DNA of 32,000 nucleotides from Candidatus Electronema halotolerans (lineage in GTDB: Bacteria; Desulfobacterota; Desulfobulbia; Desulfobulbales; Desulfobulbaceae). The DNA lies in NCBI GenBank assembly GCA_942493095.1, contig OW818675.1, forward strand, positions 1,110,001-1,142,000, written 5' to 3'. The position numbers and the translations under genes were made by a program. Position 1 is the first letter of the stretch, and each line of letters opens with the position of its first letter. Below are positions 3,587 to 29,000 of the stretch, in pieces. Under the pieces are notes generated by a model. The model was not told the origin of the DNA, did no database searches, and saw nothing but the letters and a program-made list of their open reading frames with translations.

Positions 3587-3587
3587 A

Positions 3588-5735: not shown

Positions 5736-5927
5736 TTGTTAATCCAGCAGCAAGCGCAAAACGTGGGGAATGTCTCTGCCAAGGGATGTAGCAGCACAAT
5801 AAACTGACTACAGGTCAGGCTGCTGAAAGCAGCTTCATCGACCGAGCAGCCGAATCCGCTGAACTCTTCATCTTGATAAATTTTACAGATATTTATGCGG
5901 ACGCAGGCAATGCCATGCTGCCGCGAT

Positions 5928-6101
5928 TCAAGCATTCCTCTCTGGTTTCTTTGGATCAGAAGCGAGAACAACAAGAGCGCCGATCACCGGGGTCAGGAGA
6001 ACGGAGCAGAAGAAATAGCCCCAGAAGCCAAACTTCCGATGTCGGCCCACAAAACCGATTATCACGCAAAGAACAATTAAAATCAAACCTTGCGGGGTCA
6101 T
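5928..6101 (-). CDS. Small membrane protein (57 aa), not in the ORF track
   Basis: The ATG at 6101-6099 overlaps the SPFH stop (ATGA). The translation is MTPQGLILIVLCVIIGFVGRHRKFGFWGYFFCSVLLTPVIGALVVLASDPKKPERNA*, which contains two hydrophobic helices. It falls below the 60-aa track cutoff. Confidence 0.5.
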   Translation of the reverse strand: MTPQGLILIVLCVIIGFVGRHRKFGFWGYFFCSVLLTPVIGALVVLASDPKKPERNA

Positions 6102-7087: not shown

Positions 7088-7103
7088 AACTTTCTGTTTT
7101 GTA

Positions 7104-10192: not shown

Positions 10193-13100
10193 TGTTCTCT
10201 CCTTGGTCTGGTGCAAAATATTCAGACAGAATTGCCGTCCAGTTCTCCACATGCGGCGAGAACATCATGCTCATGTGATTTCCTCCGACCCAATGTTCTC
10301 TGACTTCAGCCGTAGTGCATTCAGGCCAGCCTTGGGTCACGAATTCTCTATTGGCCAAGCCGCCGAAGCCGTCAGTTGATTCACTGGCGCAAAACAGATG
10401 AATTGGACAATGAAGATTGCCCGGCATGACATAGACTTGATCTGCCTGGCAGGTGCGCTTATAGACATTGACCATTGCTTTCAGCTCGTCAAGCGAGGTG
10501 TTGGGAGCAAAGATATTGTGCTGCCGGAACAGTTCCATGACATGCTCATACGCAGCCTCCAGATTTCCAAAGGCTTCCAAGTCTTGGACAGAGACGTTCA
10601 AATCTGTCTGCTGTGTTGTCTCAAAGGCATAGACAATATCATGCAGCCAATTATACTCATTGTAAAAGTCCATTTCATCATGTTCGGGCGGCGAGTTCGG
10701 CGCATAGGTGTCCAAGATGGCAAGACCCTGCACCTGCTCTCCTTCCTGCTCCAGCAGCCAAGCCAACTCATAGGCGACTCGTCCGCCAGCAGAATGGCCG
10801 ACTAAGAAGTGCGGACCAGTAATGTGCTGCTGCCGCAGATTCTGCCGATGAAAGAGTGCCAGCTCCTTTAAATCTTGAATTGCAGCAAAGGAGCCGTCCA
10901 AGCCCGGCGATTGCAGCGCATAAACAGGATACATTCCGCCCAAGCTGGAGGCAAGAGAATAAAAATACATGACCGAACCAGTCGCTTCCGGCAGCAGGAG
11001 CATGACACCCTTGCCCGCCTTCCCGCTCCGCAGCGGAATCAGGCAAGAGGAATCATCTGTTCTCCTTTCACGCAGCTGCTCGGCCAGCTCGGCGACGGTC
11101 GGGCTTTTAAACAGGCTGCTGACAGGCAGTTTCAGGTCAAACTGCTGGTGTATCTTGGCCATGAGCTGCAAGGCCAGCAGGGAATGGCCGCCGAGTTCAA
11201 AGAAGTTGTCATGGATGCTGATCCTGCTTTGGTTGAGCACGGCTTCCCAGATGGAAATCAGTTGCAGCTCAGTTGCGTCACGGGCAAATTTTTTCTCCTC
11301 CTGAAGATAGCTGCTCACCTCAAGTAATGCCAGCATGTTGCGGTCAATCTTGCCGCTGGGCGCAATCGGCATGGTCTCAACAACGCAGAAGGCTGCCGGA
11401 ATCATGTAGTCCGGCAAATGCTGCTGCAGCCATGAGCGCATGGCCTGCGTCTCCACCGGACATCGGACGGTGAGATACGCAACAAGCTGGCTGTCCGCTT
11501 CATCCTCTCTCCGCAGCAGGACCACCGCCTCGCTCACCGCCTCATGCTGGCGCAGCACAGCTTCAATCTCACCCAGTTCGATGCGGAAGCCGCGCAGCTT
11601 GATCTGATTGTCAACTCGGCCAATATATTCTATATTGCCATCAGGAAGCCATCTCGCCAAATCGCCGGTCTTGTACACCCGCTGCCGCTCGCCAAGCAGC
11701 TCAAGCGTGACAAACTGTTGTTCCGTAAGTTCAGGCCGGTTCAAATAGCCCCGCGCAAGACTCGCTCCGGCAATGCAGAGTTCTCCAGCAATGCCAAACG
11801 GCTGAATTTGATAATCCGCATTCAGAATATAGAGTTTGGTGTCAGCGGTGGATCTGCCAATCGGCACGGTTGAACAAGTTTCCGGCAGCGGATTGGGCAG
11901 CGTGTAGAGGGATGAGGCAATAACTGCCTCGGTCGGCCCATATTCATTGATGCAGGTCACATTTGGAAAGAGCTGCTGGGTTTTCCGCGCCAAGGCAACG
12001 GGAAAAACATCGCCGGCAAAAATCAGCAGACGCATCCTGTCGAGCTGCCGGGTCACATTTTCAACTTCACACATCTGCTGCCAGTAAGGTGCAGGAATAT
12101 CAACGACTGTGGCTTTTGTTTCATGCAGATATTCAATCAAGTCAAGAGGATTGATCAGTTCTTCCCGCAGCATTATCAAAGCTGCTCCGCCGAGCCATGT
12201 GCAGAAAATCTGTTCAATGGAAGGATCAAAACTTAGCGGCAGAAATTGCAGCACCCTGTCATCGCTGTCTATCCTGTAATAGTCACGCATATAGAGGCAA
12301 TGCAAGGCGATGGGGCCATGCTCCACGCATACGCCTTTTGGCAGTCCGGTTGAGCCGGAAGTATAGATGACATAGGCCAAATCCTCCGGCTTGCTGCGCC
12401 GCTGCGGATTGCCCAGAGCAGCCGCCTGCGCTGCTGTCTTGTCAACATCAATAATAACAAGCTGTTCAAGAGCTAAAAATTTCTCTTTTAACTGTTCTTG
12501 AGTCAGGACAATTTTAGTGCTGCTGTCTTCCAGCATGAAACAAAGACGCTCTGCCGGATAATCTGTGTGCAGCGGCAAATAGGCAGCACCTGTTTTAAGC
12601 ACCGCCAGCAGGGCAATCAGCATGGCCGGTGAACGCTCGACGCAGAGGCCGACTAAGGTGTTTGCCTGCAACCCATGATCTTGAATAAGAGAATGCGCCA
12701 GCGCATTGGCCCTGTCATTGAGCTGCTGATAGGTCAGCTGCTGTTCTTCAGTGATGACGGCAACAGCATGAGGTGTTTCTGCAACTTTGGCTTCAAAAAA
12801 ATCAGCCAATGCCTGCTTGCGTGAATAGGTGCTGGCGGTGTCATTCCATTGCTGAATGCAGCGCGCCTCCTCTGCTGTCAGCAGCGGCAGGGTGCGGATA
12901 TCAGCCTGCGGATTGTCAACTATGCCTTGCAGCAGCACGTCAAAATGTTCTGCCAAACTGATGATTGTCGCCTTGTCAAAAATATCTGTGGCATATTCCC
13001 ACCAGCAGGACAGTTGCTTGTCCTTTGTCACTGCGGTCAGGGTCAGGTCAAATTTGGCCACAGGATATTCAACATCCATGACGCTGACTTCCAAATCCGG

Positions 13101-16100
13101 CAGCGAGAGCGTGGAAACCTCATTATTTTCCAAGGCGAACATTACCTGAAACAAGGGGCTGTGGCGCATGCTGCGCACAGGATGCAGCTCTTCGACCAAA
13201 ATGTCAAAAGGAATGTCCTGATGTGTGTACGCATCCAAACAGGTCTGGCGGGTTGCCCGCAGGAGATCAAGAAAGCTCAGTTTCGATTCCCGCTTTTCAA
13301 GAGTGGCAAAGTTGGTCCGCAGAACCAAGGTGTTGACAAAAAAACCAATCAGATTTTCTGTCTGCTTCTGTGTCCGGTTGGCAATCGGCGTGCCGACACA
13401 GATGTCATCCTGTCCGCTGCACCGGGCAAGCAAAATATTGAAGGCTGCCAATAAGGTCATGAAAAGTGTGGCATTATTCTCCTGACCAAATGCGGCCAGC
13501 TTTTCACTTAATTTCTCAGAAAGCTGAAACTGGCAAACATCACCATGATATTTCCGCTCCTCTGTGCGCGGTCTGTCAAAAGGCAGCTCAATTGCATCAG
13601 GAATGCCTGCCAGCTGTCGTTTCCAATAGTCAACCTGTTCTTGTAGGATTTCACCTTGCAGCCAATCTTTCTGCCATGCCGCATAGTCACTGTAGGCGAT
13701 TTCAAGTCGGGGCAGGACTGGGCGTTCTTCCTGAGCAAAAGCAGCATAGGCCGCCTGCCATTCCTTGACAAAAAGCACCATGGACCAGCCGTCGCTGACA
13801 ATATGGTGCATGTTGAGCAGCAGAACAAACTCTTTTTCATTGAAAAATAAACATTCGGCCCGAAACAGGGCATCCTGCGTCAGGTCAAAAGGTGCAATGG
13901 CGTGCGCATTGACACGTCTTGCCACTTCCTCTTCTTTTTGATCATCAGGAAGACCAGTCAAATCATGAAATTGCAAAAAATCCATCTGCGCAGTTGGCGC
14001 AATGCTGATTTTCGCCTGTCCATTTTGAACATTGAAATAGGTGCGCAGGGTGCTGTGACGCTCCAAGATCAGCATCAGACTTTGCTTGAGAGCACTGGTG
14101 TGCAAATGGCCTGAGAGCTGCAAGGCCAAGGGAATATTATATTGCTCGCTGATGCCGCCCTCAAGCTGACTTAGAAACCATAAGCGCCGCTGGGCAAAGG
14201 AGAGCATCAGCTCCGCATTGTCCGGCTGCATGGCAATTGGCGGCAGGGTGATGGTGTCACGGCAGTCGGCAATCGCGTCAACCAGACCGGAGAGGGTCGG
14301 ATATTCAAAGACCTTGCGGACCGGCAGCTCAACCTGAAACAATTCTCGAACCCGGGCGACCAACTGCATGGCAAGCAGGGAGTTGCCGCCCCGCTCAAAA
14401 AAGCTGTCCTCCCTGCTGACCTGTTCCGCGTTCAGGAGCTTGCCCCACATCGCAGCAAGCAGCTCTTCTTCTTGGGTCAAAGGCTTTGCGCCTTCTGCGC
14501 CGCTTGCTTCCGGCACTGGCAGCGCCTTGCGGTCAATCTTGCCATTCGCTGTCAGCGGGAAGAATTCAATGGCAATAATGTGCTTCGGCAGCATGTAGTT
14601 GGGCAGACGTTCCTGAAGCCAGTCATGCAGTTCTTCAATATTGCAAGAAGCGGCTTGGCTTGTGCAATAGGCGGCTAAAAATTTGCCATTACCATGTCCC
14701 TGCAAAGTGACCAGCGCATCTTCCACTCTTGGATGCTGCCGCAAGGCCGCTTCAATATCGCCCAATTCAATACGGAAGCCATTGATCTTGACTTGGAAGT
14801 CATCGCGGCCTAAAAATTCAACATTGCCGTCGGCAAGATACCGCCCCAAGTCTCCTGTCCTGTACAGACGCTCGCCAGTGCGGGGATGCCTGATGAAACT
14901 GGCCGAAGTTTTTTCCTCATCACCCCAGTAGCACTGGGCCAAGCCAAGGCCGCCAATATACAGACTTCCCGGAACGTGGACTGGGCAAGGTTCCAAAAAT
15001 TTATTGAGCACATGAATCTGCTGATTGCGCAGCGGTCGGCCATAAGGGATGCTTGTCCAAGTTGGATCAACATGAGTAATGGGATAATGAATTGACCAGA
15101 TTGCAGCTTCTGTTGCGCCGCCAAGACTGATCACATCAGCCTGCGGAAACAGTTTCTTGATTTTGTCTGGCAGGCTTGTCGGAATCCAATCGCCGCTCAT
15201 CATGACCAGCCGCAATGAATCAGGAATAAGATCAGACTGTCCGGTAATATAGTCAACATAAATCTGCATCAGGGCAGGAACGGTGTTCCACAGGCTGACA
15301 TGATGCCGAGCCATCATTTTGGCCCAATACGCAGGTTCCTGCGCAAATTCAGGCTGCGGAACAATGACTGTTCCGCCGACGCTGAGAAGACCGAAAATAT
15401 CATAGACAGAAAGATCAAAACTCAGCGACGACAGAGCCAAAATACTGTCATGTTCAGTGACTGAAAAACGCTCATTGATATCGTCAATCGTATTTATTGC
15501 GGAACGATGACTGACCACCACCCCTTTTGGCTGTCCTGTTGAGCCAGAGGTGAAGATGACATAGGCAGTTTCATCAGGATGGATGCTGCTGTTCAGATTC
15601 TCTCCTGAATATGCTGCCAGAAGCAACTCCTCATAATAAACAGTCATGCAGCCTTGCGGCAGTTGCAGCTGTTCTCCAGTGCTTCGAGATGTTATGAGAT
15701 ATTTTGCTCCACTCTGGGCCAAAATTTGTTGAATCCGCTCTGCCGGATAGGTCGGATCAATCGGCAGATAGGCCATGCCAGCCTTGAGAACCGCCAGCAC
15801 ACTGACAATCATTTCGGGCGAACGGGGAAGGCTGACGGCAATAAACGGATTCTTTTCCCGATCAGGCTTGCAGGTGAGAAGATGATGGGCCAGCTGATTG
15901 GACTGCTGATTTAATTGTCTGTAGGTGACAATCTGATCAGCAAAGATAATCGCGGTATTGTCTGGATTTGCCCCAGCCTGCTCTTCAAAGTGATTGAACA
16001 GGGTGCAGTCTGGGACAGCTCCGGCTGTCTGATTCCATATTTGCTGCTGCTGATATTCCTGTTTGGTCAGCATATTCAGCTTGGCAACAGCTTTATCTGG

Positions 16101-17888
16101 CTGCTCAACAATGTCCGTCAGCAAGGTCATGAAATGATCATTCATGCGGACAATGGTCTCTTCGACAAATAAGTCTGTCGCATATTCCCAGTTGCAATGA
16201 ATCTGCCCCTCCTTTTCTTCGGCAAACAGGGTTAAATCAAATTTTGCAATTGGATAATCGAGATCATAAAGTTCTGTTTGCAAGCCGGACAGCTCAAGAT
16301 CAGGCAGAGGTGTTTGAAAGGCGAACATGACCTGAAAAAGAGGACTGTGACTCATGTTGCGCTGCGGTTGCAACTGCTCAACCAGCATCTCAAAAGGAAT
16401 GTCCTGATGAGCATAGGCATCCAAGCAGGTCTGGCGTGTTTTTCGCAGTAATTCCGTAAAGCTTTCCTCCGGCTCAATCTGGCTGCGCAGCACTAAGGTG
16501 TTGACAAAAAAACCAATTAAACTTTCTGTGAGGCTGTGTGTGCGGTTGGCTATTGGGCTGCCAATGCAGATGTCACGCTGACGGCTGTACCGAGACAGCA
16601 AGATGCTGAACGCAGCCAGCATGATCATGAATGTTGTCACGCCTTCCTGTCTGCTGAGTGCAATCACGGCTTGGCTTAATGCCGAAGGCAGACTGCTGGC
16701 ATAACGCCCTCCCTGATAACTGGTTCGGGCCGGACGTGTTTTATCTGTCGGCAATTCTAATAATTCAGGAATATCTGCAAGCTGCCGCCGCCAGTATTCC
16801 ATCTGCCGTTGCAGAACTTCACCTTGCAGCCACTGCCGCTGCCATGCGGCAAAATCACTGTATTGGATTGCAAGCTCAGGAATGTCAGGTTGATGATTTT
16901 CCGCAAATGCATTATAGGCCAGTTGCAGTTCACGCAGCAGGACATCAACAGACCAGCCGTCACTGGCAATATGGTGCGTGTTGAGCATGAATGCAGCCTG
17001 ATCGAGATGAAGATGCAGCAGTTTGAATTGGATAGGAAAGCTGCGCTGTAAATCAAAAGAGATCATGCTGAACTGATCAATCTCTGTTTTGATGGCAGAC
17101 TGCAAAGCATCTCCTTGAAAATGTCTGAGATCATGCTCTTGCAGCAGAATGTCATTTTTTATCTCATGCACTTCTGCTGATCCTTCTCCGTTGACGGAAG
17201 GAAACGAGCTGCGCAGGACGTGATGCCGCTCCAAGAGCCAGTGCAGACTTTGCTCCAAGGCGGAAATATTCAGCTTTCCGGTGAGCAGCCATGCGCCGGG
17301 CATGTTGTAATGCACTGCATCTTCCTCAAACTGATCAAGAAACCAGAGGCGCTGCTGGGCAAAGGAGAGCTGTTTCCGCGCCTTTTCTGGCTGCGCTGTG
17401 ATTGGCGGCAGACTCGCTGCCGTCTGATTTTCTCCGTCAAGAACTGAAGCAAGGCTGGATAATTCAGGATGGGTAAAAACACTGCGCACAGGCAGTTCGA
17501 TGTTAAATATGTCGCGAATCCTGGCAACAAGCTGAATTGCTGAAAGCGAATGTCCGCCTATGGCAAAAAAATTGTCATCTCTGCTAACAGATTTCACGTG
17601 CAGTAAAGCACTCCACAGGCCAGCCAGCAGCTCTTCTGTTGGCGTTACCGGCTGCCGACCTGAAGTCAATTCTTCAATTTTGGGAACAGGCAATGCCTTG
17701 CGGTCAATTTTGCCATTTGCTGTCAACGGCATTGATTCCAAAGGAATGAACAGCGACGGCACCATGTAATGCGGCAGACTCTCCTGAACAAGACTTCGCA
17801 GCTCCGCAATCAATTCATTGTGCTGCAAGCCTTTATTCTGACAGGGGGTGTTGGCGTAACGGGACCAAACGCTTGTGCAGGTGTTCAT
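10182..17888 (-). CDS. Non-ribosomal peptide synthetase B (2568 aa): [A9-A10 tail]-T-C-A-T-C-A-T-TE
   Basis: Domain motifs were read directly (see domain features). An in-frame TAA 8 codons upstream of the ATG fixes the start. The SD is weak. GC is about 45% in the 15001-15100 sample. Confidence 0.95.
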   Translation of the reverse strand: MNTCTSVWSRYANTPCQNKGLQHNELIAELRSLVQESLPHYMVPSLFIPLESMPLTANGKIDRKALPVPKIEELTSGRQPVTPTEELLAGLWSALLHVKSVSRDDNFFAIGGHSLSAIQLVARIRDIFNIELPVRSVFTHPELSSLASVLDGENQTAASLPPITAQPEKARKQLSFAQQRLWFLDQFEEDAVHYNMPGAWLLTGKLNISALEQSLHWLLERHHVLRSSFPSVNGEGSAEVHEIKNDILLQEHDLRHFQGDALQSAIKTEIDQFSMISFDLQRSFPIQFKLLHLHLDQAAFMLNTHHIASDGWSVDVLLRELQLAYNAFAENHQPDIPELAIQYSDFAAWQRQWLQGEVLQRQMEYWRRQLADIPELLELPTDKTRPARTSYQGGRYASSLPSALSQAVIALSRQEGVTTFMIMLAAFSILLSRYSRQRDICIGSPIANRTHSLTESLIGFFVNTLVLRSQIEPEESFTELLRKTRQTCLDAYAHQDIPFEMLVEQLQPQRNMSHSPLFQVMFAFQTPLPDLELSGLQTELYDLDYPIAKFDLTLFAEEKEGQIHCNWEYATDLFVEETIVRMNDHFMTLLTDIVEQPDKAVAKLNMLTKQEYQQQQIWNQTAGAVPDCTLFNHFEEQAGANPDNTAIIFADQIVTYRQLNQQSNQLAHHLLTCKPDREKNPFIAVSLPRSPEMIVSVLAVLKAGMAYLPIDPTYPAERIQQILAQSGAKYLITSRSTGEQLQLPQGCMTVYYEELLLAAYSGENLNSSIHPDETAYVIFTSGSTGQPKGVVVSHRSAINTIDDINERFSVTEHDSILALSSLSFDLSVYDIFGLLSVGGTVIVPQPEFAQEPAYWAKMMARHHVSLWNTVPALMQIYVDYITGQSDLIPDSLRLVMMSGDWIPTSLPDKIKKLFPQADVISLGGATEAAIWSIHYPITHVDPTWTSIPYGRPLRNQQIHVLNKFLEPCPVHVPGSLYIGGLGLAQCYWGDEEKTSASFIRHPRTGERLYRTGDLGRYLADGNVEFLGRDDFQVKINGFRIELGDIEAALRQHPRVEDALVTLQGHGNGKFLAAYCTSQAASCNIEELHDWLQERLPNYMLPKHIIAIEFFPLTANGKIDRKALPVPEASGAEGAKPLTQEEELLAAMWGKLLNAEQVSREDSFFERGGNSLLAMQLVARVRELFQVELPVRKVFEYPTLSGLVDAIADCRDTITLPPIAMQPDNAELMLSFAQRRLWFLSQLEGGISEQYNIPLALQLSGHLHTSALKQSLMLILERHSTLRTYFNVQNGQAKISIAPTAQMDFLQFHDLTGLPDDQKEEEVARRVNAHAIAPFDLTQDALFRAECLFFNEKEFVLLLNMHHIVSDGWSMVLFVKEWQAAYAAFAQEERPVLPRLEIAYSDYAAWQKDWLQGEILQEQVDYWKRQLAGIPDAIELPFDRPRTEERKYHGDVCQFQLSEKLSEKLAAFGQENNATLFMTLLAAFNILLARCSGQDDICVGTPIANRTQKQTENLIGFFVNTLVLRTNFATLEKRESKLSFLDLLRATRQTCLDAYTHQDIPFDILVEELHPVRSMRHSPLFQVMFALENNEVSTLSLPDLEVSVMDVEYPVAKFDLTLTAVTKDKQLSCWWEYATDIFDKATIISLAEHFDVLLQGIVDNPQADIRTLPLLTAEEARCIQQWNDTASTYSRKQALADFFEAKVAETPHAVAVITEEQQLTYQQLNDRANALAHSLIQDHGLQANTLVGLCVERSPAMLIALLAVLKTGAAYLPLHTDYPAERLCFMLEDSSTKIVLTQEQLKEKFLALEQLVIIDVDKTAAQAAALGNPQRRSKPEDLAYVIYTSGSTGLPKGVCVEHGPIALHCLYMRDYYRIDSDDRVLQFLPLSFDPSIEQIFCTWLGGAALIMLREELINPLDLIEYLHETKATVVDIPAPYWQQMCEVENVTRQLDRMRLLIFAGDVFPVALARKTQQLFPNVTCINEYGPTEAVIASSLYTLPNPLPETCSTVPIGRSTADTKLYILNADYQIQPFGIAGELCIAGASLARGYLNRPELTEQQFVTLELLGERQRVYKTGDLARWLPDGNIEYIGRVDNQIKLRGFRIELGEIEAVLRQHEAVSEAVVLLRREDEADSQLVAYLTVRCPVETQAMRSWLQQHLPDYMIPAAFCVVETMPIAPSGKIDRNMLALLEVSSYLQEEKKFARDATELQLISIWEAVLNQSRISIHDNFFELGGHSLLALQLMAKIHQQFDLKLPVSSLFKSPTVAELAEQLRERRTDDSSCLIPLRSGKAGKGVMLLLPEATGSVMYFYSLASSLGGMYPVYALQSPGLDGSFAAIQDLKELALFHRQNLRQQHITGPHFLVGHSAGGRVAYELAWLLEQEGEQVQGLAILDTYAPNSPPEHDEMDFYNEYNWLHDIVYAFETTQQTDLNVSVQDLEAFGNLEAAYEHVMELFRQHNIFAPNTSLDELKAMVNVYKRTCQADQVYVMPGNLHCPIHLFCASESTDGFGGLANREFVTQGWPECTTAEVREHWVGGNHMSMMFSPHVENWTAILSEYFAPDQGENNDQ
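10185..11045 (-). other. NRPS B domain: thioesterase (TE)
   Basis: The GxSxG motif FLVGHSAGG has its Ser codon at 10791-10793. ILDTYAP and GGNHMSMM are candidate Asp/His positions. The domain is terminal in the ORF. Confidence 0.8.
11073..11276 (-). other. NRPS B domain: T6 (PCP)
   Basis: DNFFELGGHSLLALQL. Confidence 0.8.
11334..12815 (-). other. NRPS B domain: A5, specificity unlike the other four
   Basis: Motifs: LTYQQLNDRAN, YVIYTSGSTGLPKG, FDPSIEQIF, NEYGPTE, YKTGDLARW, GRVDNQIKLRGFRIELGEIE, LPDYMIP, PSGKIDR. The code read by eye against GrsA numbering is D-P-E-D-I-A-E-I-A-K. Confidence 0.8.
12909..14207 (-). other. NRPS B domain: C5 (LCL-type)
   Basis: LSFAQRRLWFL, MHHIVSDGWS. Confidence 0.8.
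14265..14480 (-). other. NRPS B domain: T5 (PCP)
   Basis: DSFFERGGNSLLAMQL. Confidence 0.8.
14514..16016 (-). other. NRPS B domain: A4, Cys-type code
   Basis: Motifs: LSSLSFDLSVYDIFG, LWNTVPALM, MMSGDWIP, ISLGGATEAAIWS, GRDDFQVKINGFRIELGDIE, LPNYMLP, NGKIDR. The code read by eye is DLYNMSLIWK. Confidence 0.8.
16089..17372 (-). other. NRPS B domain: C4 (LCL-type)
   Basis: LSFAQQRLWFLDQ; THHIASDGWS with the HH codons at 16971-16976. Confidence 0.8.
17439..17645 (-). other. NRPS B domain: T4 (PCP)
   Basis: DNFFAIGGHSLSAIQL. Confidence 0.8.
17685..17888 (-). other. NRPS B N-terminus: orphan A-domain C-terminal tail (A9-A10), the missing end of module 3
   Basis: MNTCTSVWSRYANTPCQNKGLQHNELIAELRSLVQESLPHYMVPSLFIPLESMPLTANGKIDRKALP. 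It is collinear with RLWPSYANTPYQEDADRLQLPAELRAFIKKTLPDYMVPAAFILMEAMPLTPNGKIDRKALP at 31808-32000. Confidence 0.8.
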
Positions 17889-17950
17889 CTGGAAGTTTTC
17901 TTTATCGCATTAGGAGCGGGTTGAATTTTCTCAGCAACTTCTCTTTCCAA

Positions 17951-19084
17951 TCAAAAGGTTGTAAAAGAAGTCAATTTACGGAAAATAGATTCTATATGGG
18001 GAAGCAGTTCCGCAGGCTCCTGATCATCCTGAATGCGCTGTAGCCACCCTGCCTTGCATTCACAGTCAAGTCCAGCAAAGGCAGAGGAATTTTGACAGCG
18101 ATTGAATAAATGTATGGCTTCTTTCGTTTCCTGATTGCAGGCAGGACAATTTTCACTGCAAGCAAGGGCTTCCACAGTGTACGTCGGTGGACTGACATAA
18201 ATTTCAGTTTTCAATCCCAATGCTTCGCGTCGATGTAAAATTTCATCGAGACTCCATAAACGGGGAAGAGTGTACAGACCATGCTGCCAGAGATCATGCA
18301 TTAACGTGTGCTGCTCAATCGTCGCCAGTTCAAAATCAATTCTGGCAACATGGCATGATTCAAGATAACGCAAACTGTCAACTATATCCTCTATAGCCAT
18401 TTTTTCTGTCAAAAAAGGCGGCTTGAGCATGATCAGCGGCACCAGACGCACGCCATGCCGTTGCAAGATTTCCACTTTTTCTTCAAAAAGTTCAAGAGAG
18501 AAATTTTTATTGACACAGAGATTGCGTACTGTCTCGTTTGCTGATTCAAAACCGACCGCAATCTCCAGTTCAATCGTACCAAGAACTTTTTTCAAGGCGG
18601 CTATCTTTTCTTCTTCTATATCAATAACTTTCGTTTCGATAACAATTCTCCGAGCAGACGGCACTTCAGCAATCATGCTGCATATTTGCAAAACAACATC
18701 AAAATCTATCTCCCGTTCTTCAAACAGGCTGCCATCATTATATAAGCTGAAGATAGGATAATTTTGTGCTATGACATCACTGTTTGACAAGACAAGCGAT
18801 ACTTGATGAAGATAATCCTCATTTGGTATCTTATTCCCAAAATTCGTTGCATTCCAAAATCCGCAGAAGGTGCATCCTCCATTGTCATTAGCCCAAGTGC
18901 ATCCGGTTCCACGAAGGAACAGCACTAAACGGTCAACATACTCCCCATGTAAATAACTTTTTCGCAAATCTGTAAAAATTACTTCTTCAAGCTCATTATG
19001 AGAACGATGTATATGCGCAGCCTGTTTTCGTAACTTAGTCATATATTGCCTGATCTGTGATCTCAGTTCACTTTGTTTGACCAT
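17951..19084 (-). CDS. Radical SAM-like protein, Elp3-related (TIGR01210/TIGR01212-like) cluster spacing (378 aa)
   Basis: LRGTGCTWANDNGGCTFCGF (C-x8-C-x2-C), then SLYNDGSLF. The C-terminal Cys-rich region is ACSENCPACNQ (C-x3-C-x2-C) ..NRCQ..LDCECK. I prefer the ATG at 19084, which has AAGGAG at 19091-19096 (6-nt spacer), over the track start at 19180. GC is about 40% in the 18481-18580 sample. Confidence 0.75.
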   Translation of the reverse strand: MVKQSELRSQIRQYMTKLRKQAAHIHRSHNELEEVIFTDLRKSYLHGEYVDRLVLFLRGTGCTWANDNGGCTFCGFWNATNFGNKIPNEDYLHQVSLVLSNSDVIAQNYPIFSLYNDGSLFEEREIDFDVVLQICSMIAEVPSARRIVIETKVIDIEEEKIAALKKVLGTIELEIAVGFESANETVRNLCVNKNFSLELFEEKVEILQRHGVRLVPLIMLKPPFLTEKMAIEDIVDSLRYLESCHVARIDFELATIEQHTLMHDLWQHGLYTLPRLWSLDEILHRREALGLKTEIYVSPPTYTVEALACSENCPACNQETKEAIHLFNRCQNSSAFAGLDCECKAGWLQRIQDDQEPAELLPHIESIFRKLTSFTTF

Positions 19085-19195
19085 TTTTTTCTCCTTTTTG
19101 AAAAAAGTTGGCGACTTTGAAAAAGATGAAGGGTGGATGAAAGAGGACAGTTTCAGCTCTCTTTGCTTGTCATGGAGCAAACGCCTCAGCGCATA

Positions 19196-20068
19196 TTATG
19201 CTTCCCGCAGTAAACGAAAACCAAGATGATTGTATCTTTTATTGTCATCATAGGCGATGCAATGGGCGGAACGACAGAACGTTGGATAATAGTTCCACGA
19301 TCCGCCGCGAGCCATTCGTAATGGGCCAGTCACGGATAACGGATCCTTGATGCCGTCAAGGCAGGTGTCCACCCAAAAATAACACTTTTCATGATAGACT
19401 ATGCATTTATCTTGACACCATTCCCATAGATTGCCATGCATGTCATATAATCCCCAAGCATTTGGAGCGAAGCTCGCCACAGAACAAGGCCTCAAGTCAA
19501 GCTCATCATCAGGATTCAAAGGCGCAAGACGGTAGTTTTCCTCGTAATCAGCAAGACTTCTGTCTAAATGATTGGCAAGTTTGGTGGTGATCTCGTCGCC
19601 AAAATTATAGGCAGTTGTTGTGCCTGCCCGACAGCTGTACTCCCATTCTGCTTCCGTTGGAAGACGATACACTCCATCTTCCTGCTGATTCAGCCATCTG
19701 ATAAATATCTGCACGTCAATCCATGACACACAACTCACCGGATAATCATCTTCCTGCTCATATCCTGGGTTGTCCCAGTATATATCCTGATATCTACGGC
19801 CATCTTTGTTCAAACGTGTGGCATACGCTCCATCCTCAATTTCAGCTTGCGTCTTATAACCAGTTTTTTCGACAAAATGCCGCCACTGCCCCACTGTCAC
19901 ATGGGTATCTTGCATGTAAAATCCTTTTGTCAGGATAACTTTATGCAGTATTTCGCTGTCATATCTCCCAACTTCAGTTTCTGGTGACCCCATCATAAAG
20001 CTACCAGCGGGAATATAACAGAACTGCATTTTCAGAGCATTTGTCAGTTTCTTTAGCGAATTGCTCAT
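19196..20068 (-). CDS. FGE-sulfatase (SUMF1/EgtB/PvdO) family protein, paralog 1 (290 aa)
   Basis: Motifs: FCYIPAGSFMMGSP, HKVILTKGFYMQDTHVTVGQW, YPVSCVSWID, RLPTEAEWEYSCRAG, WGLYDMHGNLWEW, RGGSW....CRSA, LGFRL. AAGGTG lies at 20073-20078. It starts 24 nt after the NRPS A stop and has no signal peptide. Confidence 0.85.
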   Translation of the reverse strand: MSNSLKKLTNALKMQFCYIPAGSFMMGSPETEVGRYDSEILHKVILTKGFYMQDTHVTVGQWRHFVEKTGYKTQAEIEDGAYATRLNKDGRRYQDIYWDNPGYEQEDDYPVSCVSWIDVQIFIRWLNQQEDGVYRLPTEAEWEYSCRAGTTTAYNFGDEITTKLANHLDRSLADYEENYRLAPLNPDDELDLRPCSVASFAPNAWGLYDMHGNLWEWCQDKCIVYHEKCYFWVDTCLDGIKDPLSVTGPLRMARGGSWNYYPTFCRSAHCIAYDDNKRYNHLGFRLLREA

Positions 20069-20092
20069 TTTTCACCTTTCAAGGTCACAGCA

Positions 20093-23000
20093 TCACGCAA
20101 AATGATGCCAAGTTTTTTTAAAGAGAAAGCTCTCTTCAGTCGTTGCTGTTTCACTCATATCTTTTCGACAAAATGCAACAGCATAGTGGTAAGGGCTATC
20201 GTAACTGATGATGCAGGCGAAATTTGCCTGATCAGCTAACCGGCACAATTCATCGGGATCAATTCCCTGCTCTCTTTGCCGCAGAGAATTTCGCAATTCT
20301 TTCACGGTGCCCTCAGCGTTGTGTAATTGCGCCAAAAGATGCTTCTCAGCGGACAATCGGGCGTTGGGTATATTCTTTATGGCAAAAGATCGGTTCTCAG
20401 CTAAAAGTTGTGCAATATTTGATAGATTCACGTCCTGCTCCTGCCAGTCGAGCCAGATTGTCTCCGGCTGCTCCGGTTCCTGATCAAGTCGCAAGATGAC
20501 GTCGTAACGAAAACGATTCATTTCGTTTTGCCCTGCACCAGCTTTCAGTTGAATTTGGACATTCTTGATACGCGGGAATTCCTGATGTATTGCCTTGAAC
20601 AAATCAGGATCAATGAACAGTTCTTCCTCTTCCTGCACAGCTTTCTGGATGTGTTGCCGCAATACAGATAAAGGCAAGGAATCTTCTGCCTGATGGAGTT
20701 GAACAGAAGCGTGAAACGCTTCCAGCAGCTTGAAATTGCGTATGTCGCCTATAAAAATGCTGCCGCCCGGCGAAACAGCCTCCATTGCTTTTTCCAAGAC
20801 CGAAATACAATAATCAACTGAAGGAAAATATTGAATAACAGCATTCATGGCAATAACATCCACAGAACCGTTTTCAATTCCTTGAAAGGCATCAGCGGCG
20901 TTTCTTTGCTCCTGTAGCAGTTGAGAAAAGTCAACGCCAATGTATTGTTGGCAGGAAGGAGCTATGCAGGAGGAAAACGCCCCAATTCCGCAGCTAATTT
21001 CCAGCAAACGCTCTGGCTTGAGGGAGAGAATCTTTTCAACCGTGTCATTCAACCACGACATCTCCCCCTTGGCACTGCCTGTTTTTTTCTTCTTTGACTC
21101 AGATTCAGGGACAAAATAGGCCAGCAGCCGCTTGCCATCTATTTCATCATGGGCAATGACTGTCGCTTCTTTCACCAAAGGATGTCGACAAATGGCTGTT
21201 TCAATCTCGCCCAGCTCAATGCGGAAGCCGCGAATCTTGACCTGAAAGTCGTCGCGGCCAAGGAACTCAATGCTGCCGTCTGGCAGCCAGCGGCCTAAAT
21301 CGCCGGTGCGGTAGAGGTGCTCGCCGGTGCGCGGATGGATGATGAAGCTGGCGGCAGTCTTCTCCTCATCGCCCCAGTAACACTGCGCCAAACCGATGCC
21401 GCCGATATAAAGCTGTCCCGGAACCAGCAGCGGACAAGGTGATAATTTTTCATCCAAAATATGAAAGGATTGATTGCGCAATGCTTTGCCGTAAGGAATG
21501 CTCTTCCACGCCGGATCAACGTGGTCAATCGGATGCCAGATTGACCAGATTGAGGCTTCGGTGGCCCCGCCGAGACTGATGGTTTGCGCCTGCGGCCAGA
21601 CAGTGCTGATGCGCTCCGGCAGATTGAGCGGAATCCAGTCGCCGCTCATCATGACCAGCCGCAGGGCGGCATTGCCCTCAATTTGCTCGGCATAAATCTG
21701 CATCAGGGCCGGGACGCTGTTCCAGACCGTCACCTGATGACGGCTCGCCAGCTCGGCCCAATGCGTCGGCTCCTTGGCTTTTTCCTGCTCAGGCATGACC
21801 ACTGCGCCGCCAGCGGCGAGCAGGCCGAAGATGTCATAAACCGACAGGTCAAAACTCAATGAAGACAGGGCCAGCACCCGGTCATTCTGGCCAACGGCAA
21901 AGCGTTCGTTGATATCGAGAATGGTGTTGGTCGCGCCACGATGGCTGATGGCCACTCCCTTGGGCAGACCGGTCGAACCGGAAGTAAAGATGATGTAGGC
22001 CAAGTCATCCGGCTGCGTTGCGACTGCCGGTTTTTCCGGCGGAAATGCAGTCAGATCAAGCTGCTCCGCTGTCAGGGTCCGCACGTTTTCCGGCAGCTCC
22101 AGACTGTCCGCAACCCGCTGATGGGTGATCAGGCTGCCTGCGCCGCTGCCCTCCAGAATGCGCTGAATGCGCTCCGCCGGATAATCAGGATCAACCGGCA
22201 CATAGGCTGCCCCGGCCTTGAGCGCGGCCAGCACGCTGATGATCATCAGCGGAGAACGTTCCAGAGCGACCGCGACCAAGGGCTGCCTGCTCGTTTCTGT
22301 TTTTATTGCCAGAAGACAATGCGCGAGCCGACAGGCCTGCTGATCAAGCTGCTGATAGGTGAGCTGCTCATTTTTATGAATGAGAGCAGCACTGTCCGGC
22401 GATGCCGCAGCCTGCCGCTCGAACAGGTCAAGCAGGGTGCAGTCAGGAACCGGCCCGGTCTCCGGCGCGTTCCACTGCTGAATCTGCGCCAGCTCCGGCT
22501 GTGTCAGCATATCCAGCTGGCCGACAGGCTGCTCCGGCGCGCTGATCAAAGCAGCCAGCAAGGTGCGCAGATGGCCCCAGAAACGGTCAATGCTCTCAGC
22601 ATTGATCCGGCAGCTGTCGTGCAGCAGATAAAAATCTGCTGTCTCGCCCGGATCAACCATGATTGTCAAGGGAAAGCTGGTCGCGTTCTGACTCCACATC
22701 TGCTCAATGCGGTAACTCTCATCCGCTGTTGCCTCGTTGTCGCCTCGTGGAAAATTTTCCACAGCCAGCAAGGTTTCAAAGAGAGCCTCATCTTGAGCAA
22801 GTTCGCTTTGCTCTTGAATATCAACTAATGAGCTGAAACCATGCCGACTGTCAGCCTGATGCAGTTCCTGCACGTGCTGGAGCAGCTCGCTGCCGGACAG
22901 GGAATTGTCAATTTGCAGGCGAAATGGCAGTGCGTTGATCAGCATGCCTACCATATCCTCAATACCGGCAAGAGACGCATTGCGTCCGGAGATCATCACG

Positions 23001-26000
23001 CCGAAGCATATATCTGTTTTGCTGCTGTACCGGGCAAGTGCCAAGCCCAGCGCAGTTTGCAGCACTGTGTTCAACGTGACTCTCTGCTGCTGGCAGAACT
23101 GCTGGAGCTGCGCAGCAGACTCTGCACCTAACGAGTAACGTATTTTACGGTACTCGGGTTGTAACTTATTGAGTTGTTGTATGGGCAAGAGGGTAGGTTC
23201 TGTAAAACCAGCCAACCGTTCCTGCCAATAGCAGTTTGCGTTTTCAGCATCCTGCTTCTGAAGCCAAGCAATGTATTCCCGGAAAGGCGGCAAGGTCGGC
23301 AGCTGTGGTGTTCTGCCCTGCTTCATGGCCAGATAGCTGCTGCGCACCTCCTCAAAAATTCGTGAAACTGACCAGCCGTCCAGCAGCACATGATGGAAGT
23401 GCATGACAAAAGTGAACTGCTCATCATCTCTGCGGATCAGATCAAAACGAATCAGGGGAGCTTTACTGACAACAAATCCTTTTTTTCGCTCCTGATCTGT
23501 CAGCAGCCGCAGCCGCTCCTTCTGCTGCCCGACAGGCAATTCCCGCCAGTCATGCTCCTGCCAGAAAAGTTTTGCCTTTTTCTCGACAAGCTGTAGCATG
23601 GGCGTATGATCTGTCAGAAACGCGCTGCGCAGAATTGGATGCCGCTCAAGCTGTAGCTGCCATGCCGCTTTGAAGAACAGAGCATCTATATTGCTTAACG
23701 TGCAAAGAAGCTGCTCAAAATACTCCTCGTTTTCAGGCTGATACAGCGTGTGGAACAACAGGCCCTGCTGCATCGGCGTAAGCGGATAGATATCTTGGAT
23801 ATCAGCATATTGTTTGAACAGGCTGTCCAAAGTCGCCTGCGTCACCGAAGCGGCGGGAAAGTCAGACGGCGTGACTCCTTGACGGCCTTGAGCGCAGTGA
23901 TGAACAAGCTCCTGCAAACAGGCAATATAAGCTTGAGCGATTCCCTTGACAGTCTCCGAACGATAGCAGTCGCTGCTCCAGCTCCACGTCAAAGAAAGTT
24001 GGCCCTGCGTCACTGCGCCGTTGATTTCAAGCAGATGACTGCGCGGGCCGGTCATGCTTATTTGGCTGCCGGTCTTCTCTGCGGTCATCGAAAAAGAACC
24101 TGCATCAATCCCTTGATCAAACTGACCAAGATAGTTGAATACAATATCCGCCTTGGGCAGTTTGTGTCCAGCCAGCTCCTTCAGCAGACCATAGCTGATG
24201 CCGTCCTTGGGGATGCGGCGCAGTTGTTCTTTGACTGCCTTGATGACTGCTCCCAGCTCGTTTGCTTGGGGCAGATCAAGCAGCACTGGATACATGGCAG
24301 TAAACCAGCCTGTAGTCCGTGACAGATCAAGTTCCGGGAACAGCCCGACTCGGCCATGTCCTTCCAGCTCAATCAAAGATTGTGAGCTGCCATGCCAATC
24401 CCGCAAGGTCATGGCTAAAGCCGCTAAGAGCAAATCATTGATTCGGGTGTTATAGGCAAGCTGCGCTTCCCGCAGCAGGGTCGAAGTTTTTTTCTCTTCC
24501 AAGCGGACGGTGATTTCCTGCTGATATTCACGCCTGTTTTTTCCGTCTTGGAAATCCATCGGCAGAGGCAGCTCAGGCAGTGCCTGCCAGAAGTGCAGTT
24601 CATCGGCCAGCTCCTGACTGCTGAGATAGCTCTGTAGCCGCATTGACCACGCCTTGAAACTGCTGCTTTTCAGCGGCAGCGAAAGCGGCTGGCCTTGAAC
24701 AAGCTGACTGTAAGCTTTATGCAGGTCTTCCAGCAAAGGCCGCCATGACACGCCGTCAACTGCAAGATGGTGAATGCACCAAAACAGGCGGGTTCGGTCA
24801 GCAGTTTGCAGGAGCGTCAAACGGGTCAGCGGCCCGTGAACAAAATTGAGATTCTGCTGCTGGTCCAAAGTTTTGCTGATCAGCCATTGTTCAGCCTCCT
24901 CTTCTTGGGCAGCGGATCTTTCGATTGTGAAAGGGATTTTTTCTGCTGCTGGCGCATAATATTGCTGCCATGAGCCGTCATGCTGCGAGAAACGCAGCCG
25001 AAGTGCGTCATGATGCTGCAAGACAGCGGCAAAGGCTTGGCGCAGGACATCTGGGTTGAAATCATCAGGAACTGAGAGCAGCACAGACTGGTTGAAATGA
25101 TGCGGTTCTGGCTGCTCCTGAGCAAAAAACCAATGTTGCGCTGGCGTGAGCGGCAGCTCGCCGCTGACTAAACCTTGCTCGGCATCAATATCAATAAGCA
25201 CCCCTGCTTGCGCAACTTTAGCCAGCTCGGCAATGCTTTGATGCTCAAATAGATGATGCACGGCAAGCTGAATTCCGGCCTTGCGGGCGCGGGTGACAAC
25301 TTGGATGCTGAGGATGGAATCGCCGCCCAGCTCAAAAAAGTTGTCGTGAATGCCGATGCTGCGCTGTTTAAGCAGTGCGCCCCAGATTTCCGCCAGCGTC
25401 TGCTCAATCTCGTTGCGCGGCAGGGAAAAATCTCCCGCGTCAAAGGTCAACTTTGGTTTTGGCAGGGCTTTTCTGTCAATCTTGCCGTTGGCGGTCAGCG
25501 GAAAGGTTTTCAGAGGCATCAGATAGTTTGGCACCATGTAGTCTGGCAAACGCTCTTTCAGCCAAGTGCGGAGCTGGCCACTCTCCAAACACGGATCGCT
25601 GGCAGTAAAATACGCAGCAAGATGCCTGCTGTCGCCCTCATCATGCACAGCAGTCAGAGCCTCTCTGACCGCCGGATGCTGGCGGAGGCAGGCTTCAATC
25701 TCGCCCAGCTCAATGCGGAAGCCTCTGATTTTGACTTGGAAGTCGTCGCGGCCAAGGAACTCGATGCTGCCGTCCGGCAGCCAGCGGCCAAGGTCGCCGG
25801 TGCGGTAGAGGCGTTCGCCCGCGCGCGGATGGATGATGAAGCTGGTTGCGGTTTTTTCCTCGTCATTCCAATAGCATCGCGCCAGGCCGCTGCCGCCGAT
25901 ATAAAGCTGTCCCGGCACATTGACCGGGCACGGCTCCAGCGCGCTGTTGAGCACCTGCCAGCTCTGGTTGCGCAGGGCCTTGCCATACGGAATGCTTTTC

Positions 26001-29000
26001 CAAGCCGGATCAACGTGGTCAATCGGGTGCCAGATTGACCAGATGGAGGCTTCGGTGGCCCCGCCGAGACTGATGACCCGCGCCTGCGGCCAGACAGTGC
26101 TAATGCGCTCCGGCAGATTGAGCGGAATCCAGTCGCCGCTCATCATGACCAGCCGCAGCGATTCAGGGCGCAGGGCCGCCTGCCCCTCGACGTGATCGGC
26201 GTGAATCTGCATCAGGGCCGGGACGCTGTTCCAGACCGTCACCTTATGGCGATTTGACAGCTCGGCCCAATGCGTCGGCTCCTTGGCTTTTTCCTGCTCA
26301 GGCATGACCACTGCGCCGCCAGCGGCGAGCAGGCCGAAGATGTCATAAACCGACAGGTCAAAACTCAATGAAGACAGGGCCAGCACCCGGTCATTTTGGC
26401 CAACGGCAAAGCGTTCGTTGATATCTAAGATGGTGTTGGCCGCGCCACGATGGCTGATGGCCACGCCCTTGGGCAGGCCGGTCGAGCCGGAGGTGAAGAT
26501 GATGTAGGCCAGATCATCCGGCTGCGTTGCGGCAGCCGGTTTTTCCGGCGGAAATGCGGCTAAGTCGAGTTGCTCTACGGTCAGCGCATGAACGTTTTCC
26601 GGCAGTTCCAGACTGTCCGCAACCCGCTGATGGGTGATCATGCTGCCTGCGCCGCTGCCCTCCAGAATGCGCTGGATGCGCTCCGCCGGATAGTCAGGAT
26701 CAACCGGCACATAAGCGGCCCCGGCCTTGAGCGCGGCCAGCACGCTGATGATCATCAGCGGTGACCGCTCCAGAGCGACCGCAACCAAGGGCTGCCTGCT
26801 TGTTTCTGTTTTTATTGCCAGAAGACAGTGCGCGAGCCGACAGGCCTGCTCATCAAGCTGCTGATAGGTGAGCTGCTCGTCTTTGTGAATGAGGGCCACA
26901 TTGTCCGGCGATGCCGCAGCCTGCCGCTCGAACAGGTCAAGCAGGGTGCAGTCAGGCGCAGGCCCAGTCTCCGGCGCGCTCCACTGCTCCAGCTGCTCCA
27001 GCTCGGCCGCAGTGAGCATGGGCAGCCGACTGACCGACTGACGCGGATCTGCGGCTATGCCTTGCAGCAGGATCATGAAATGCCCGCTCATGCGGATAAT
27101 GCTGGCTTCGCTGAAGATATCCGTGGCGTATTCCCACGTGCAGCGGAGTCGGCCCTCCGAATCATCAACAAAGAGGGTCAGGTCAAATTTGGCAATCGGA
27201 TATTCGCTGTCATGAATTTTGGCTTCAAGACCTTGCAGCTCCAATGAAATTTCATCCTGAACAGCGAGCATGACCTGAAAGAGCGGGGCATGGCTCATGT
27301 TCCGGCTTGGCTGCAGCTGCTCGACCAGCATCTCAAAGGGAATGTCCTGATACGCATAGGCCGCCAGACAAGTTTGCCGGACAGCGTGGAGCAGCCCGCT
27401 GAAGGACTGCTCCGGCTCAAGATGGGTGCGCAGCACAAGCGTGTTGACAAAAAAACCAACCAAATCTTCAGTTTGCCTGTGCGTCCGACTGGCAATCGGA
27501 CTGCCGACGCAGATGTCGTCCTGACGGCTGTAGCGAGACAGCAGGATGCTGAAGGCGGCGAGCAGGGTCATGAACACAGTTGCGCCTTCCTGCCTGCTCA
27601 AGTCAGCAACTGCCTGACTGATCTCCGACGGCAGCAGATGGGTGTAATGCGCGCCGCGATATGACTGACGCGCAGGCCGCGCTTTATCGGTCGGCAGCTC
27701 CAGCAGGTCCGGGATGCCGTCAAGCTGTCGCTTCCAGTAATCGACCTGCCGCTGGAGGACTTCGCCTTGCAGCCAGCCGCGCTGCCAGACCGCAAAATCA
27801 CCGTATTCAAGGGCCAGCGGCGGCAGGCCCGGCTCTTCCTCATTCAGGAAGGCGGCATAAGCGTGCTGCAGATCGCGCAGGAGAATGCCGATTGACCAGC
27901 CGTCGCTGACAATATGGTGCATGTTTAGCAGCAGAACGGCCCGCTCCGCCTCGGTCCGCAGCAGGACTGCCCGGAACAGCGGACCGCTCGCCAGATCAAA
28001 AGGGGCGACAGTATGCTCATAAAGCTGGGCGACGATTTCCTGCTCCAGCACGTCGCCGTCAAGATGACGCAAATCTGCAATCTGAAGACAGGGCGCATCC
28101 TCTGCCGGGCGCAGTTCCGCACGGGGTCGGCCATCCTCGGCGGCAAAAATCGTGCGCAGCGAGGCATGACGCTGCCGCAGCCAATGCAGGCTTTTTTCCA
28201 ATGCAACTGCGTTCAAGCCGCCAGTCAGCGCAAAGGCCAGCGGCATGTTGTAGGCGGCGGTCTTGTTTTCCTCAAGCTGATCAAGGAACCAAAGCCGCTG
28301 CTGGGCGAACGAGAGCTGTTTCCGCGCGGCATCCGGCTGCGCGGTGATCGGGGGCAGGCTGACTGAACCGGCGGCTGCGCGGACCACCGCCGCCATCTCA
28401 CGGAGCGTCGGATGCTCAAAAATCGCGCGCACCGGCAGCTCAGTCTGAAAAGTCTCCCTGATGCGGGAGACAAGCTGCATGGCGAGCAGGGAATTGCCGC
28501 CCCGCTCAAAGAAGCTGTCCTCCCTACTGATCTGCTCCGCATTCAGAAGTCCTGCCCAGACAGCGGCCAGCAGCTCCTCGTCCGGGCTGACCGGCTTCAG
28601 CCCCTCCTGTTCAGCGGTCAATTCCGGCTCCGGCAATGCGTTCCGGTCGAGCTTGCCATTGGCAGTCAGCGGCAGCGCGTCAAGAAGACAGTAATAGGCG
28701 GGCACCATGTAGTCCGGCAGGGCCTGCTGCGCCGCCGCCTTCAGCTCGGCTGTCAGTGACGGAGCCGCCGCATCCGCAGTGACATAAGCGGCCAAATATT
28801 GCTGTCCGCCGCCGCCCCAGACTTTTGCCACCACATCTCTGACCGCCGGATGCTGGCGGAGGCAGGCTTCAATCTCGCCCAGCTCAATGCGGAAGCCTCT
28901 GATTTTGACTTGGAAGTCGTCGCGGCCAAGGAACTCGATGCTGCCGTCCGGCAGCCAGCGGCCAAGGTCGCCGGTGCGGTAGAGGCGTTCGCCCGCGCGC

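Follow-up and report, generated by a model that had tools for sequence, protein, structure and literature searches.

A Methyltransferase-Interrupted Adenylation Domain Divided between Two Nonribosomal Peptide Synthetases of Candidatus Electronema halotolerans

Organization of the Locus

The stretch of DNA studied here, in the following referred to as the window, comprises 32,000 nucleotides of the genome of Candidatus Electronema halotolerans (contig OW818675.1, positions 1,110,001 to 1,142,000). It encodes two large nonribosomal peptide synthetases (NRPSs), NRPS A and NRPS B, between which the adenylation (A) domain of a single module is divided. All relevant genes of the locus are located on the minus strand, in the order NRPS A, an FGE-like gene, a radical S-adenosylmethionine (SAM) gene, and NRPS B. 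NRPS A (20093–32000) comes in across the right edge of the window, with its 5' end outside. Within the window, translation and motif map reveal the domain order [A9-A10]-T, C-A-T, C-A-T-E, and C-A(A1-A8)-MT remnant, where C, T, E, and MT denote condensation, thiolation, epimerization, and methyltransferase domains, respectively, and A1 to A10 the core motifs of an A domain. The FGE-like gene (19196–20068) and the radical-SAM gene (17951–19084) occupy the break, and NRPS B, which starts at 17888, continues with [A9-A10]-T, C-A-T, and C-A-T-TE, the latter ending in a thioesterase (TE) domain. The positions which an initial annotation, made from the sequence alone, had assigned to the A8 peptide, the stop codon of NRPS A, and the two genes in the break were confirmed. 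Six proteins encoded in the window have exact matches on the 3.2-Mb source contig. In the public annotation NRPS B is listed as CAK8715745.1 with an identical start; the source genome labels the NRPS B, radical-SAM, and FGE-like proteins as 'hypothetical protein'.

Anatomy of the Split Adenylation Domain

The A core of module 3 in NRPS A (21260–22552) has intact motifs A3, A4, A5, and A7 and is of the Cys type according to motif map and structure search. It is followed by the N-terminal half of the small A subdomain (21104–21259, GRDDFQVK..LLAYFVPE), which contains the A8 peptide GRDDFQVKIRGFRIELGEIE at 21200–21259, with A8 itself at 21236–21259. A remnant of a backbone N-methyltransferase and a 23-aa tail (together 20096–21103) complete the protein, which terminates in ..KKTWHHFA at the stop codon 20093–20095. 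In the motif map of NRPS A, no A9, A10, or T motif was found beyond A8. NRPS B, in turn, begins with MNTCTSVWSRYANTP. Its head (residues 1–66, 17691–17888) consists of the linker end WSRYANTP, A9 (LPHYMVP, from residue 38), and A10 (NGKIDR, from residue 58, including Lys60), and the GGHSL motif of a T domain follows from residue 111 (with Ser114). An in-frame TAA lies 8 codons upstream of the NRPS B start, as the initial annotation had also noted.

Both open reading frame (ORF) ends were compared with profile models and with solved structures. The Pfam model AMP-binding_C, which has 76 positions, matches with positions 1–39 on the tail of NRPS A and with positions 38–76 on the head of NRPS B, where PP-binding follows. 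When tail and head were joined in silico, the A8 side corresponded to residues 564–635 of LgrA and the head to residues 640–764. Since the two pieces align to adjacent stretches of LgrA, whose A domain is uninterrupted, they are natural neighbors, and in terms of domains the split has neither removed nor doubled any part. The right edge of the window (31808–31999) offers an internal reference for the unbroken form; there, the preceding module carries an intact MT-to-A9 junction (APRLWPSYANTP..LPDYMVP..NGKIDRKAL, with the linker ..RLWPSYANTP) ahead of its T domain, matching AMP-binding_C positions 41–76 and PP-binding. The alignment with module 1 of a relative, P0122, reveals another intact junction of this kind. 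The cut through the A domain of module 3 thus falls precisely at the transition from the MT insert to A9, and the absent A9-A10-T is what NRPS B starts with. In this respect, motif map, Pfam, translation, and the LgrA alignment bear out the initial annotation, which had described the missing motifs, the opening of NRPS B, and the unbroken junction, and had proposed to align both ORF ends with profile models.

Authenticity of the Break

The genome of Ca. Electronema halotolerans was obtained as a Nanopore R9.4.1 metagenome assembly with Illumina polishing (PMC10030654), and sequence errors were therefore a fair concern. The break might be an artefact or a recent pseudogenization, due to misassembly of repeats, a Nanopore frameshift, or the fresh insertion of a two-gene cassette. 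Besides the sequencing technology, this explanation could draw on the internal repeats of NRPS A, which are 81–87% identical, on a GC content that drops to about 0.44 at position ~21100, and on a homopolymer (A7) located 20 nt upstream of the stop codon of NRPS A. However, four Logan assemblies agree with the window. L001 (ERR9670067) is identical (100%) over 17035–21230 and spans both junctions. L002 and L003 (SRR21856587/8), which belong to a different project accession series, are 99.9% identical with 3 differing positions, and L004 deviates from the window by a single indel; these three cover the stop of NRPS A and the FGE-like gene and end at 18383 or 19096, before the start of NRPS B. 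The A-core repeats stop at 21200, so that the break lies outside of them, and the flanking ORFs are uninterrupted for 11.9 kb and 7.7 kb. A search for direct repeats of a mobile cassette flanking the inserted genes returned chance-level matches only, the best one being 13/15 nt between 17897–17911 and 20048–20062. Moreover, the same break recurs in relatives that have diverged to saturation of their synonymous sites (see next section). The break is not an assembly error; the four Logan assemblies settle this point and answer the concern about misassembly that had accompanied the initial annotation. The artefact explanation as a whole is largely refuted, and we regard it as highly improbable. 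A scan of the break for promoters and terminators gave a result no different from shuffled sequence.

Conservation of the Split in Related Loci

Diverged copies of the locus were reached through homologues of the radical-SAM protein. They reveal the break on both sides in L005 and in L006–L008, and on the NRPS A side in L012, L119, and L121, so that the search for the same split in related genomes, suggested by the initial annotation, was successful. In L005, the NRPS gene is followed by the FGE-like gene, the radical-SAM gene (73% identical protein), and an NRPS gene opening with MNTCKSTWSRYANTP. L006, L007, and L008 share the order NRPS, FGE-like, and radical-SAM (70%), followed by four more genes and an NRPS opening with MKNRKTDWSQYANTP. 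In L012, L119, and L121, the NRPS ORF ends just past the MT remnant, and an FGE-like orthologue follows, sometimes after one or two extra ORFs. The DNA identity to the relatives with the identical break is only about 66–77%, and synonymous sites are saturated.

At this distance, both halves of the A domain are well preserved. For the 72-residue head of NRPS B, the nonsynonymous divergence (dN) amounts to 0.143 (L005) and 0.286 (L006), with a synonymous divergence (dS) above 1.6, and for the A8-side half of the small subdomain dN is 0.13–0.21 versus the relatives. The corresponding values against L005 and L006 are 0.26 and 0.23 for the A core, 0.17 and 0.20 for the radical-SAM protein, and 0.12 and 0.31 for the FGE-like protein. 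The A9-A10 head evolves as slowly as its neighboring domains, and both halves are under purifying selection. In all three lineages for which the start of NRPS B is available (window, L005, and L006), the start codon is found 7 residues ahead of the conserved Trp. Start codon, A9, and the A10 lysine have been kept over a distance at which dS is saturated, which would not be expected of a functionless relic.

The initial annotation had also pointed to a W-x-x-[FY]-A motif on both sides of the break and taken it as a sign of a short duplication. The motif occurs four times in 6536 residues; two of these occurrences are true MT-to-A9 linkers, and one is formed by the last six residues of NRPS A, where about 0.003–0.015 would be expected in a 25-aa tail (counted post hoc). 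The motif in the tail is real and rare, and it may be suggestive of such an event. Yet the tails of L005, L006, and L119 are without it, and the two sites flanking the break match in 8/15 DNA positions (counted by eye). A short duplication at the break is therefore conceivable.

A comparison of the NRPS B head plus T domain with the protein collection returned short fragments only; two of them were examined more closely and proved uninformative, namely L036, a frameshift-ridden contig, and L037, which lies at a contig edge. P0182, at first sight a further NRPS that ends after an intact MT, was ruled out because the gene fills its whole contig (L118, 1–3321), and its end is the contig end. L120 encodes an FGE-like orthologue (78%), with no recognizable NRPS tail or radical-SAM gene alongside.

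The Methyltransferase Remnant

The MT part of module 3 belongs to a known family (Methyltransf_23, E=4.9e-10) and is homologous to the backbone N-methyltransferases of interrupted A domains, as shown by its match to TioS A4aM4A4b (PDB 5wmm, E=1.8e-33), which covers chain residues 546–802 only. As in TioS, McyA, and PchF, the MT is inserted at the a8-a9 site. In contrast to these three, which carry a9-a10 on the same chain, the chain of NRPS A ends after the MT, and a9-a10 resides on NRPS B. The initial annotation had counted about 336 aa of MT sequence following A8. MT-family sequence is indeed present, but it does not seem to form a complete domain: against intact relatives and TioS, about 50–55 N-terminal residues are absent (the first ~55 residues of the TioS/McyA/PchF type), together with a segment of about 18–20 residues after motif I. 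Motif I itself reads EISCGIG in the window versus EIGVGSG in TioS. It is completely deleted in L006 and L119, while L005 retains motif I and has lost the C-terminal part of the MT. Judging from these sequences, the MT of this clade has probably lost part or all of its catalytic activity. Methylation would then be dispensable or lost, and the MT would be kept mainly as a scaffold.

Comparison with Known Split and Trans-Acting Modules

A closely similar case is the corallorazine NRPS of Corallococcus coralloides B035, described by Dreckmann et al. (RSC Chem Biol 2024). There, Crz1 has the domain order C-A-T-C-A2-nMT and then stops, while Crz2 carries A9-A10 within residues 1–65, followed by T-TD (PMC11342130). 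Crz1.2 alone gave no turnover with glycine, whereas a 1:1 mixture with Crz2 led to almost quantitative turnover (PMC11342130). In both systems, the upstream ORF ends right after an N-MT inserted past A8, the downstream NRPS ORF opens with A9-A10 and continues with the T domain of the same module, and the break falls into the MT-to-A9 linker, at the same place to within a few residues.

Several differences have to be noted. The Crz module is terminal (T-TD) and uses glycine, while the module in the window is internal, of the Cys type, and precedes two further modules as well as a TE. The nMT of Crz has been described as conventional and embedded, consistent with the N-methyl-glycine of the product; the MT in the window is partly deleted. 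Finally, the need of both proteins for adenylation was shown experimentally for Crz and is a prediction for the window.

The initial annotation was not aware of any description of the architecture. Its suggestion of novelty does not hold, since Crz1/Crz2 has the identical break and its adenylation depends on both proteins (PMC11342130). By the same analogy, however, the reconstitution in trans that the initial annotation had proposed gains direct support from the precedent. The split in the window is real, conserved, and most likely functional; it is of the Crz1/Crz2 kind, with a new gene arrangement.

A distribution of the functions of one module over more than one protein is also found in SyrE/SyrB1, albicidin, and ramoplanin (PMC8949500). 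In these systems, the activity is provided by a separate protein with a whole A domain or A-T pair, while in the window the A domain itself is cut inside its small subdomain.

Proposed Reconstitution of Module 3 from Two Proteins

Taken together, we consider it likely that module 3 has a naturally split, MT-interrupted A domain to which two proteins contribute one part each. Such a reconstitution in trans accounts best for the findings, because the break is conserved in diverged lineages, because both halves have a low dN, and because there is experimental precedent. NRPS A would supply the C domain, the complete A core, the A8-containing first half of the small subdomain, and the eroded MT. 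The contribution of NRPS B would be the second half of the small subdomain, i.e., A9 and A10 with the catalytic Lys60, fused directly to the T domain of the module. We infer that the two halves join non-covalently into a single subdomain. Cysteine would then be adenylated and loaded only once NRPS A and NRPS B have assembled, and the rebuilt subdomain might double as a docking interface between the two synthetases.

A number of observations weigh against this reading. Within the window, the two halves are separated by 2.2 kb and two genes, and by six genes in L006, unlike the adjacent crz1 and crz2. The NRPS B start, located 62 nt past the stop codon of the radical-SAM gene, lacks an evident Shine-Dalgarno sequence, and the C-terminus of NRPS A, aligned with its relatives, does not reveal a conserved docking peptide. 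The deletions in the MT differ from lineage to lineage, and the dN of the MT tail (0.24–0.58) is about 2-fold that of the A parts; both indicate relaxed constraint on the MT part of the module. Some relatives show decay: in L012 (9621–12187), the radical-SAM gene is frameshifted into ORFs of 127 aa and 238 aa beside a DDE transposase, and in L005 (8655–8849), the truncated MT C-terminus is followed by an unrelated 64-aa ORF. Lastly, the neighboring A domains are all of the same Cys type, so that the chemistry would allow another A domain to load the T domain.

In a different explanation, the A domain of module 3 is a dead relic, and another Cys-type A domain charges the first T domain of NRPS B in trans, or the module is skipped. 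The A9-A10 head would then have been kept solely for docking or as a structural support of the T domain. Shared Cys-type core motifs (FDLS, GGATE) in four A domains of the window, those of NRPS A and the first one of NRPS B, are compatible with this explanation, as is the erosion of the MT in the same module by lineage-specific deletions. In addition, modules with inactive A domains are loaded in trans elsewhere, e.g., in albicidin and ramoplanin biosynthesis (PMC8949500). However, A3, A4, A5, A7, and A8 of module 3 are all intact. A9 and the A10 lysine are kept in three lineages with a dN as low as that of bona fide domains, and in no lineage has the start codon drifted downstream to the T domain. 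Furthermore, the only split of this kind that has been tested, Crz1.2 plus Crz2, is active. We therefore rate the dead relic as rather unlikely and retain reconstitution from two proteins as the preferred explanation.

With the preferred explanation, the linker between A8/MT and A9 emerges as a recurrent natural fission point of NRPS A domains, and Crz1/Crz2 is not a one-off. The halves need not adjoin and may be up to six genes apart, which argues for a robust post-translational reassembly. In NRPS engineering, a split small subdomain could serve as a natural docking device. There is also a consequence for genome annotation, as domain predictors would call module 3 A-less or truncated.

Genes Located in the Break

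The two genes between NRPS A and NRPS B could themselves be the reason for the split. The FGE-like protein shows the FGE-sulfatase fold (PvdO/EgtB/SUMF1-like; PF03781, E=1.5e-52, 179 bits). It stays below all NCBIfam equivalog cut-offs, the best being PvdO with 135.7 bits versus 500. In the public annotation, its gene is shorter and encodes a 'hypothetical protein' of 239 aa (GCAAIG_05160); the orthologues favor the start at 20068, which gives 290 aa. Near the C-terminus, the protein in the window and its orthologue in L005 contain CRSAHC (C-x4-C), which we take to be at the place of the Cys pair in FGE, while the orthologues of L006 and L012 have C-x6-C instead. The radical-SAM protein (PF04055) remains under the cut-off of TIGR01210, the RaSEA family of archaeosine radical-SAM enzymes (196.6 versus 212.15 bits). 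In its family alignment, C62, C71, and C74 are invariant. By its sequence relationships, it is assigned to a bacterial RaSEA paralogue family found in clusters of NRPSs and polyketide synthases (PKSs). A literature search for this radical-SAM or FGE family in NRPS pathways returned nothing relevant, and in a metagenome scan with the FGE alignment, which used generic patterns, the matches listed were FGE proteins of 30–41% identity only.

In an explanation centered on these genes, the FGE-like oxidase and the RaSEA-like enzyme would act on the cysteine while it is bound to the T domain that opens NRPS B. The separation of A core and T domain would give both enzymes access or act as a timing checkpoint. 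FGE-like orthologues (61–81% identity) follow the NRPS A stop in L005, L006, L012, L119, and L121, i.e., in five lineages, and the radical-SAM gene keeps its position in three, including L005 and L006. The CRSAHC motif and the Cys-type substrate predicted for the module also fit. On the other hand, the break of relatives contains unrelated genes as well, namely a STAND NTPase and HipA with its helix-turn-helix (HTH) partner in L006, ORFs of unknown function in L119, and a 2-oxoglutarate oxygenase in L121. As the break is shared with unrelated genes and another FGE-like gene is located elsewhere in the cluster, position by itself, from which the initial annotation had derived a role at this module, is not evidence for action on module 3. 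L006 and L012 have not retained the C-x4-C spacing, and close homologues of the radical-SAM gene stand beside an aminotransferase gene in unsplit NRPS/PKS clusters. Finally, the Crz1/Crz2 split has nothing in its break. A causal role of the enclosed genes is therefore doubtful in our view.

A more far-reaching idea combines both lines. The break would be a functional device that makes cysteine loading of the module-3 T domain dependent on NRPS A–NRPS B assembly, and the break enzymes (the RaSEA-like protein and the FGE-like protein, the latter possibly a copper/thiol-oxidizing enzyme) would remodel the T-bound cysteine of a poly-cysteine peptide. If true, a new class of sulfur- or aldehyde-modified nonribosomal peptide could be expected in a cable bacterium, but we see this as a long shot.

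Some details of the gene neighborhoods are added here. In L006, the interval between the radical-SAM gene and the A9-A10-headed NRPS (11561–17409) encodes a 1288-aa STAND-type NTPase, an HTH/HipA toxin-antitoxin pair, and a 105-aa ORF. The close radical-SAM homologues outside split loci (53–68%) always precede an aminotransferase gene (L009, 10001–12290; L011, 10001–12282; L013, 4960–7236). These clusters are unsplit NRPS/PKS clusters, one of them in Ca. Thiomargarita nelsonii; the cluster in the window has no such aminotransferase gene.

Cys-Type A Domains and Internal Repeats

Four A domains of the window (those of NRPS A plus the first one in NRPS B) share the motifs FDLSVYD, MMSGDW, and GGATE..IW, and the nearest single solved A domain to the module-3 A core is the Cys-activating BmdB (408 bits). 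Over 10182–32000, these A domains show the Cys-type motifs of heterocyclization modules and are paired with ordinary HHxxxDG condensation domains. From the motifs, we predict a peptide product in which at least four cysteine-derived residues follow one another. In view of the many Cys modules, a connection with the cable-bacterial nickel bis(dithiolene) cofactor was considered. It was rejected, because the cluster is not a shared trait of cable bacteria: a scan of the radical-SAM family with one genome per species returned no cable-bacterium genome, the nearest being Ca. Thiomargarita nelsonii (68%), and the FGE-like orthologue set falls to 49% identity at the first Electrothrix match.

Modules 1, 2, and 3 share A cores of 86.6% identity (21200–22531, 25694–27040, and 28868–30214), where the first of these segments ends exactly at A8. 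In addition, a 3.1-kb C-A-T unit is repeated at 81% identity (25662–28728 versus 28836–31908). At the A8 boundary (~21100), the GC content falls from about 0.57–0.63 to the low value mentioned above. The coincidence of the repeat boundary and the sharp GC drop with motif A8 points to gene conversion or recombination that was limited to the A cores. The GC drop also fits the A8-A9 region as a known recombination hot spot, as cited by the authors of the crz study (PMC11342130).

Neighboring Genes

Downstream of its head, NRPS B (10182–17690, minus strand) comprises, according to Pfam and motif map, the T domain described above, a Cys-type C-A-T module, and a final C-A-T-TE module. The second FGE-like gene (9323–10252, minus strand; PF03781, E=8.6e-50) follows downstream of NRPS B. 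Its product contains CRAAC and is 48% identical to the FGE-like protein in the break. The true start of the gene is probably an internal Met near 10192. It is part of the NRPS cluster, although located outside the break. Just downstream of the NRPS genes, the region 4833–9260 encodes a TauE/SafE-family exporter, a Band 7/SPFH protein, and a 718-aa ABC exporter, which possibly provide the export functions of the cluster. The content of the cluster thus includes at least four Cys-type modules, two FGE-like genes, a RaSEA-like radical-SAM gene, and ABC and TauE exporters.

Apart from these genes, a low-GC island with three ORFs (1588–4631; GC content 0.29–0.39 versus 0.5–0.6 around) was observed. 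Two of its ORFs gave no family match; the remaining one encodes an AAA_5 ATPase that matches the 'Type II restriction enzyme' models of PADLOC (E=2e-33). The island is probably an acquired restriction or defence module.

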